IMG/VR virus record: IMGVR_UViG_2706794689_000006
Length of the DNA stretch: 4,506 nucleotides
Strand: one strand, 5' to 3'
DNA from: a virus
Lineage: Duplodnaviria > Heunggongvirae > Uroviricota > Caudoviricetes
Part shown: positions 4,247 to 4,506 of the stretch, one piece after another
How the letters are laid out: each line of letters opens with the position of its first letter
Numbering within the stretch: position 1 is the first letter of the stretch
Translations under genes and position numbers: made by a program
The notes under the pieces: generated by a model
What the model saw: only the letters and a program-made list of their open reading frames with translations
The model's database searches: none
What the model was told of the DNA's origin: nothing

Positions 4247-4301
4247 GTTCTTTTTTTGTGGTGAAAGATGAGGCAAAATTATCGCGTAACATGCTAACAA
4301 T

Positions 4302-4305
4302 GGAG
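4302..4305 (+). promoter_or_regulatory. Shine-Dalgarno-like GGAG upstream of the small ORF
   Basis: GGAG lies 8 nt upstream of GTG 4314. Confidence 0.3.
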
Positions 4306-4313
4306 TTTGTTTT

Positions 4314-4445
4314 GTGATAAAGCCATTTTTAATGACGGTTGCAATATTAACCTCTTGCTGTGCTCAGGCGAAAATACTAACAAATGAGGAGATTGTTTCA
4401 CGATTTATTAGTAACGTTAAAACGGTGATGCTGCCAACTTACTGA
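4314..4445 (+). CDS. Hypothetical small protein (43 aa) with signal-peptide / lipobox-like N-terminus
   Basis: GTG start with GGAG 8 nt upstream; alternative ATG at 4332. Translation is MIKPFLMTVAILTSCCAQAKILTNEEIVSRFISNVKTVMLPTY, stop TGA at 4443-4445. It has a basic residue near the N-terminus, a hydrophobic core, and LTSC, which fits the lipobox pattern [LVI][ASTVI][GAS]C. It is too short for the supplied ORF track and sits in AT-rich sequence, so it may be spurious. Confidence 0.3.
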   Translation: MIKPFLMTVAILTSCCAQAKILTNEEIVSRFISNVKTVMLPTY

Positions 4446-4506
4446 TTTAGTGTATGATGGTGTTTTTGAGGTGCTCCAGTGGCTTCTGTTTCTATCAGCT
4501 GTCCCT

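Follow-up and report, generated by a model that had tools for sequence, protein, structure and literature searches.

An IS1-interrupted accessory cargo gene follows the tape measure gene in a phiP27-like prophage remnant

Anatomy of the AT-rich segment

We analysed a 4,506-nt stretch of viral DNA (the window; IMG/VR record IMGVR_UViG_2706794689_000006) that ends in an AT-rich segment, positions 4247-4506, directly downstream of a phage tape measure gene. This segment has two parts. Positions 4247-4423 hold a 67-nt leader and the first 36 codons of an accessory gene, here called the cargo gene, and positions 4424-4506 are the left end of the insertion sequence (IS) IS1. In the window, IS1 splits the cargo gene after codon 36 and leaves it a pseudogene. 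The AT-rich leader (4247-4313) contains a run of seven T at 4251-4257, exactly where a first-pass annotation of the letters had placed it, and is absent from the empty sites of phiP27-type prophages described below. A Shine-Dalgarno motif, GGAG (4302-4305), lies 8 nt 5' of the GTG start codon at 4314. From there the 5' fragment of the cargo gene extends to 4423, comprising codons 1-36 plus 2 nt of a gene that is 483 bp long when intact and encodes 160 amino acids. The fragment codes for a signal peptide MIKPFLMTVAILTS, a lipobox with Cys15 (codon 4356-4358), an alternative signal peptidase I site AQA/K after codon 19, and the start of an N-terminal helix. The source genomes carry it annotated as a chimeric 43-amino-acid open reading frame (ORF; 4314-4445), in which the 36 cargo codons are joined to seven from the IS1 inverted repeat and which stops at TGA 4443-4445. 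The exact product is found on two NCBI assemblies and is named SS323385_3177 in Shigella sonnei 3233-85. The genes, leader and IS1 end described here all lie on the strand given, and we are highly confident of this overall anatomy.

The IS1 left end (4424-4506) is 100% identical over 83 nt to the IS1 of phage P1, in a match annotated there as 'terminal IR of IS1 / insA'. It opens with the 23-bp left terminal inverted repeat GGTGATGCTGCCAACTTACTGAT (4424-4446); insA starts at GTG 4479, and the window ends within insA. In the source contig, L005, the full element measures 768 bp (L005 10112-10879) and carries a transposase ORF matching PF03400, and the rest of the cargo gene, a hairpin and the next tail gene lie 3' of it. 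The left copy of the 9-bp target-site duplication CGTTAAAAC occupies 4415-4423, a second copy follows the IS1 right end (L005 10880-10888), and the uninterrupted allele has a single copy. The inverted repeat, the length, insA and the duplication on both sides identify the element as IS1, which arrived by simple transposition with a canonical 9-bp duplication. IS1 has thousands of matches in E. coli genomes. In a sister assembly (L006 4883-6425; GCA_000268045.1, AKNC01000076.1), two tandem IS1 transposase ORFs occupy the same insertion site, and the gap between the tape measure gene and the 3' part of the cargo gene is 1725 nt there versus 949 nt in the source of the window, reflecting either a tandem duplication of IS1 or an assembly effect.

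We computed GC content per region and in sliding windows of 260 nt and 177 nt within the tail genes. The whole segment (4247-4506) has 38.1% GC, its non-IS part (4247-4423) 34.5% and its IS1 part (4424-4506) 45.8%, against 52.4% for the tail genes (81-4246). Sliding 260-nt windows in the tail genes averaged 52.5% (standard deviation 4.1, minimum 45.0%), and the lowest 177-nt window reached 42.9%. As no sub-window of the tail genes is as low as 4247-4423, the drop is real and exceeds the window's own range. The first-pass annotation had reported an AT-rich stretch of about 260 nt starting right at the tape measure stop. The shift and its starting point stand, the TGA stop codon occupying 4244-4246. 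The length does not: the last 83 nt, which that annotation had not recognised as IS1, belong to another element, and the '260 nt' come from the end of the window and IS1, not from the element's own size. In an uninterrupted copy (L001), the whole insert has 36.7% GC, and GC at third codon positions (GC3) of the intact cargo gene is 31% versus 55% in both flanking genes. For this cargo, GC ranges over 34.5-36.9%, against 52-55% in the flanks. At every locus where the gene occupies this tail slot, including 27 IMG/VR loci and those of distant homologs, the cargo has 34-42% GC and the flanks 47-56%.

Upstream of the segment, the window contains a contractile-tail module with genes for the sheath (81-1495), tube (1495-1851), tail assembly chaperone (1851-2186) and tape measure (2271-4246), the last of which matches PF10145 (PhageMin_Tail) in the source contig. 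The tail genes are 98% identical in nucleotide sequence to those of the Stx2e phage phiP27, and the match in the tape measure gene runs up to window position 4237. The window maps exactly to NCBI contig AGRD01000060.1 (GCA_000281815.1; L005 5632-10193), which was reached through the chimeric ORF, an exact search of genome contigs for the cargo/IS1 junction having given no match. The source prophage is phiP27-like with a Mu-type tail, a decayed remnant in which IS elements abound (IS4-like, IS3-family and three IS1 transposase ORFs on L005). Its host is most likely S. sonnei, as the 43-amino-acid ORF is annotated in strain 3233-85 and in other S. sonnei assemblies. Two masked N-runs interrupt the window, at 614-780 and, inside the tape measure gene, at 3137-3412. 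Their lengths are not true to the source, 167 N standing for 249 nt and 276 N for 250 nt, so that neither the coordinates nor the reading frame can be followed across a run as in the true sequence, and the sheath and tape measure ORFs look broken. The window starts within an IS3-family element. Positions 1-18 hold the final codons and the TAA of its rve-domain transposase (L005 4831-5649), and the end of the element extends to about position 57, just 5' of the sheath gene, a place taken in intact relatives by the tail-terminator and DUF2635 genes. The chaperone gene holds a run of seven T of its own (2114-2120) in X XXY YYZ register, with a -1 frame open for 52 codons to TGA 2276-2278, overlapping the tape measure start at 2271, a probable case of the usual G/GT-type programmed frameshift. 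An Rfam scan of 4100-4506 gave only a sub-threshold RsaJ match (17.8 bits; gathering score 100), which we dismissed.

The junction between the tape measure gene and gpN

Positions 4247-4423 match 11 complete E. coli chromosomes at 96-100% identity, and the match ends exactly at the IS1 border. In these chromosomes the uninterrupted order is tape measure stop, 67-nt leader, 483-bp ORF, 46 nt and a DNA-circularization gene (Mu gpN-like, hereafter gpN). The 160-amino-acid product is annotated as 'hypothetical protein' (WP_000594909.1 or WP_032083313.1). The junction occurs in 50 complete E. coli genomes, whose flanking sequences match the query at 92-100% identity (about 92-95% at empty sites); 11 of the 50 carry a 581-bp insert and about 38 are empty. 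Among close relatives, prophages with and without the insert have flanks of 95-98% identity. The gap between the tape measure gene and gpN is only 15 bp in phiP27 and likewise at the empty sites of STEC276 and ETEC1732, and 33-60 bp in SfV, ST64B, F1055, YeP1 and 689R6, which agrees with the earlier expectation that the next tail gene normally follows closely. Because near-identical prophages carry or lack the 581-bp insert, and because its GC3 is 31% against 55% in the neighbouring genes, we conclude that the insert is an optional accessory cargo gene of moron type, placed between the tape measure gene and gpN.

This bears out the proposal of an inserted accessory gene in the first-pass annotation, which had also named two observations that would speak against it, a conserved tail-gene part at this place and no real GC shift. 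We looked at both, and neither holds. Its term 'moron-like' survives in part. Of the features that define a moron in the sense of Juhala and Hendrix (PMC3594210), the cargo gene shows extra DNA where close relatives have none and a deviating base composition; its own promoter did not appear in consensus scans, and the terminator probably belongs to the tail-module backbone.

Some loci depart from this pattern. In S. flexneri SFBU1023 and E. coli ECMA0423 (L034, L035), the cargo gene is intact (99% identity) and no DNA-circularization gene was found over the next 4 kb; rearrangement or truncation of the prophage is probable at this place. E. coli FDAARGOS_1077 (L038 3375-3575) has a deletion derivative, a prophage without the whole block from head completion to tape measure, in which the major capsid gene almost abuts the DNA-circularization gene. 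H99, considered as a case of a different cargo upstream of gpN, was rejected as a deletion derivative whose capsid gene abuts gpN.

The order tape measure gene, cargo ORF, gpN was found in all 27 IMG/VR loci, in phage vB_EcoM-720R4 and around the homologs P0010, P0013 and P0014, and the same slot is kept across five tail-module lineages. Homolog P0022 sits in the slot together with a HIRAN-domain gene; on a metagenomic contig (L052 2387-3423) a HIRAN-domain gene is followed by the family member. Three more distant homologs (P0019, P0020 and P0023) lie in maintenance or lysogeny regions of phage-plasmid-like elements, with IncFII RepA, ParA, toxin-antitoxin genes, a CI-like repressor and a RecA-dependent nuclease as neighbours. 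The flanks of P0020 and P0023 were examined, and both genes have an AT-rich upstream region and their own terminator. These two also have in common a palindrome rich in AT, TTTAAATAAATATTTAAT, directly 5' of the gene (L047 2829-2918; L051 688-739), which could be a promoter or operator. Pantoea phage AH07 (L044 961-1455) carries in the slot an unrelated 164-amino-acid ORF with a signal peptide (hhalign probability 1%). The junction thus looks like a recurrent cargo site, including for exported proteins.

Identity among cargo proteins is 36-53%, versus 47-81% for the flanking tape measure, gpN and gpP genes, the cargo always being the more diverged. In divergence the cargo does not clearly track its flanking tail genes (Spearman 0.25-0.45, n = 10 pairs). 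The comparison suggests that the cargo gene evolves fast, is exchanged, or both; ancient residence with repeated loss and repeated gain cannot be separated by the co-divergence data.

The T run at 4251-4257 makes up the 3' side of an A-U hairpin that is weak (-7.2 kcal/mol, z = -1.04) and was not called as a terminator. A strong hairpin with a T-run lies 3' of the ORF, at -14 kcal/mol (z = -3.05) in clade 1 and -20.4 kcal/mol (z = -4.3) in clade 2, and a hairpin with a T-run also follows the ORF in P0010, P0013, P0020 and P0023. The source-contig copy of this hairpin (L005 11268-11290, outside the window) is GC-rich and stands directly 5' of the gpN ribosome-binding site. A like hairpin is present between the tape measure gene and gpN in the cargo-free phages SfV, 689R6, YeP1, ST64B and F1055, and also after the unrelated cargo of AH07. 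Across six lineages, 100% of the stem cells pair and three of six pairs show compensatory changes, against 31-50% pairing and no compensatory changes in slid controls. The hairpin is missing from the phiP27-type empty sites, where the cargo is also missing, and from the P0014 context. Since an equivalent hairpin stands at cargo-free junctions, the hairpin terminator is probably a backbone element of the tail module, with the cargo inserted upstream of it. At this position it may be an attenuator within the operon, setting how strongly the tail genes are expressed relative to the baseplate genes.

The cargo protein and its proposed role

The intact cargo protein matches PHROG 5586, a phage family with no assigned function, from end to end (E = 9.7e-89, residues 1-160 on profile positions 1-161). 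The full-length match and the invariant motifs shared among homologs indicate that the intact gene is a real gene. The family is rare: a word-indexed search returned nine clusters, and a profile hidden Markov model (HMM) search of 1.84 billion proteins returned 19 representatives, some of which are fragments or noise. The giant repeat proteins P0018, P0021 and P0025 were rejected as members, their cadherin/Big_9/CHU_C-type or Cys/Ser/Thr-rich repeats being compositional noise. Carriers are Shigella, E. coli, Salmonella and Yersinia. Homologs share 36-53% identity (50% for phage vB_EcoM-720R4 and 36-46% for P0010, P0013 and P0014), and the family alignment shows conservation of two cysteines (C57 and C150) and of the motifs CPxxSASG, KASYEF, MPRGQFFVDV and GESG. 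A literature search found no paper that names the accession numbers of the cargo protein. The 'moron' described for phage SfIV was considered as the same element and rejected, as it lies between Q and the lysis genes.

In full-length members whose N-terminus is complete, the sequence opens with a hydrophobic signal peptide that terminates in AxA/K. A lipobox search with the expression [LVI][ASTVI][GAS]C found LTSC at residues 12-15 in the window's clade and LISC in the Yersinia homolog. At the aligned end of the signal peptide, all other clades have AxA/K sites and lack a lipobox; the expression also matches VAAC near the N-terminus of P0014. The window's clade is therefore probably made of lipoproteins and the other clades of soluble periplasmic proteins, as judged from these motifs. 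Lipidation is only predicted, the window's clade having the AQA/K signal peptidase I site beside its lipobox. In the window's clade the residue at +2 is Cys, not Asp, so that under the established Lol rule sorting to the outer membrane would be expected.

An AlphaFold model built with 14 diverse sequences reached a predicted local distance difference test score (pLDDT) of 82.8 and a predicted template modelling score of 0.77. With eight close sequences the pLDDT was 40.8 and the model unusable, and distant members were added for the final one. The model confidently predicts a helix (residues 24-41) followed by eight beta-strands, that is, an N-terminal helix with an eight-stranded beta-barrel. 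At E <= 0.001, Foldseek matched this model to no viral or PDB structure. The structure thus yields a predicted fold class and not a function.

Taken together, we consider it likely that the AT-rich segment is the start of an accessory cargo gene, split here by IS1, whose product would be exported and act in the envelope, with exclusion of other phages as its most likely role. The protein would be exported to the periplasm or lipid-anchored, in the window's clade probably at the outer membrane, and its action in the envelope would be that of a small binder or blocker to the lysogen's benefit. Its most likely role would be exclusion of superinfecting phages, by masking a receptor or by blocking DNA entry mediated by the tail tip or tape measure. 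Transcription would probably come from read-through of the tail operon, from a weak non-consensus promoter in the leader, or from both, and the transcript would end at the hairpin and T-run just upstream of gpN. Phage exclusion specifically is a tentative assignment, with a chance somewhat below even, suggested by the precedents of HK97 gp15, Cor and T5 Llp together with the fast divergence of the gene and its place in lysogeny modules of phage-plasmid-like elements. A narrower version is possible but doubtful: PHROG 5586 would be an envelope superinfection-exclusion protein of a new kind, an exported or, in the window's clade, lipid-anchored, disulfide-bonded eight-stranded beta-barrel directed against the receptor or DNA entry of SfV/phiP27-type myophages, and carried as fast-evolving optional cargo in a dedicated slot between the tape measure gene and a conserved intra-operon terminator, a slot open to other exported cargo as in AH07. 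Two other roles were rejected for the cargo protein: that of a spanin, since an o-spanin would differ in location, size and fold, and that of a tail-assembly factor, as a signal peptide is incompatible with a cytoplasmic virion component.

Several observations weigh against an envelope-acting exclusion protein made by the lysogen. A sigma-70 consensus scan around the leader found no site in clade 1 or clade 2, in a strict scan that a weak or non-sigma-70 promoter could escape, and the only promoter-like site in the window (4431-4458) lies inside IS1. Expression from the prophage while repressed, the hallmark of morons, is therefore only putative for the cargo gene. No homology ties the PHROG 5586 family to any function: searches of Pfam, NCBIfam, PADLOC and PDB sequences gave no match to the cargo protein, with no PADLOC-DB family at E <= 10. 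The lipobox is confined to one clade, and anchoring is not a trait of the family. The window copy is inactivated, its function being dispensable in this host. Finally, P0014 is tightly packed between tail genes, with gaps of 16 and 17 bp and no hairpin, and has the look of an ordinary late gene.

In a rival reading that we judge rather unlikely, the cargo gene belongs to the tail operon as one of its normal late genes, sharing a transcript with the tape measure gene and expressed in lytic growth only, for example to mask receptors on the dying cell as in the logic of T5 Llp. The empty promoter scans in the leaders of both clades, the tail-gene orientation, the position upstream of the backbone hairpin that precedes gpN, the packing in the P0014 lineage and the slot kept in five tail-module lineages all fit it. 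Against it, the gene is optional among near-identical prophages and therefore not needed for virion production, and its GC3 departs from that of its flanks. The distant homologs in lysogeny or maintenance modules, with their own AT-rich upstream region and terminator, fit expression in the carrier state. Late expression would itself be compatible with exclusion, by the same Llp-like logic.

Also rather unlikely is that the exported beta-barrel serves host fitness or virulence, as a PliC/MliC-like inhibitor of lysozyme or peptidoglycan hydrolases, or as a lipocalin-like protein whose ligand binding is of use to the lysogen in the gut. The carriers are enteric pathogens, and the family appears to comprise lipoprotein and soluble periplasmic forms, as PliC/MliC do. 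The conserved S-A-S-G loop recalls the MliC motif 'SxSGAxY', which is no more than a lead. The residues after SASG are not kept as in MliC, however, and Shigella and E. coli readily lose or inactivate the gene. None of 14 family members matched Pfam MliC or another family, even at E <= 10, leaving an MliC/PliC identity unsupported by HMMs.

The possibility that the segment is non-coding, a regulatory spacer or an intra-operon terminator region between tail genes, is very improbable. The T run does stand directly after the tape measure stop, and the tail module does have a conserved hairpin with a T-run between the tape measure gene and gpN. The hairpin formed by the T run is weak and drew no terminator call, though, the conserved hairpin lies 3' of the cargo ORF and outside the window, and the ORF is conserved as a protein down to 24-40% identity, with invariant motifs and a confidently predicted fold. 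The 'regulatory region' that the first-pass annotation had offered as its alternative is thus not supported. AT-richness as a by-product of IS1 insertion or sequence masking is ruled out, despite IS1 filling 4424-4506 and the N-runs elsewhere in the window, as the IS1 part is less AT-rich than the non-IS part, the same AT-rich sequence occurs without IS1 in 11 E. coli genomes, and 4247-4506 is free of N-runs.

The segment is genuine but ordinary, moron-type cargo of an uncharacterised family and a pseudogene here, and for the window itself the message is modest: a dead gene, typical of IS expansion in Shigella. New here for PHROG 5586 are the signal peptide and lipobox, the fold class, the fixed genomic slot and the presence/absence polymorphism. 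Lysogenic-conversion and phage-exclusion functions are known to come from morons in tail operons, and to these morons a rare family of predicted exported beta-barrels is added. In prophages of Shigella, E. coli, Salmonella and Yersinia, this family has a fixed address in SfV/phiP27-type tail modules, between the tape measure gene and gpN. If the family does exclude phages, this would be relevant to phage therapy design and to which hosts the serotype-converting phages of Shigella can infect. Beyond the routine are the recurrent slot for exported proteins and the conserved intra-operon hairpin that bounds it; this terminator-like hairpin, with cargo inserting upstream, may help to understand tail-operon expression more generally.

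Comparison with known systems

The IS1 in the window shows no notable difference from the IS1 of phage P1. PliC/MliC proteins, like the cargo family as predicted, are small exported eight-stranded beta-barrels with soluble periplasmic and lipoprotein versions. The N-terminal 18-residue helix and the conserved cysteine pair are specific to the cargo family, which has no HMM match to them.

T5 Llp is a receptor-blocking lipoprotein that excludes phages at the level of the envelope. Llp and Cor (of phi80, N15 and HK022) resemble the cargo protein, as predicted for the window's clade, in being phage-encoded exported lipoproteins beside tail or receptor-binding genes. Both are much smaller than the cargo protein and target FhuA, and only one clade of the cargo family has the lipobox. 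Cor is an envelope-acting exclusion protein encoded by a moron near tail genes (PMC3594210).

In HK97, gp15 is encoded by a moron beside the tape measure gene and mediates superinfection exclusion; both prophage expression and exclusion have been demonstrated (PMC3594210), whereas for the cargo gene both are putative and the promoter scan was empty. Gene 15 lies between the chaperone and tape measure genes and the cargo gene between the tape measure gene and gpN. The proteins have no sequence relation, gp15 being a small YebO-like inner-membrane protein and the cargo product a 160-amino-acid protein with a signal peptide and lipobox, modelled as a beta-barrel. Each is nonetheless a small envelope-targeted protein (by prediction for the cargo product), and in both cases the gene is an extra one in the tail operon beside the tape measure gene, deviating in composition and absent from close relatives.

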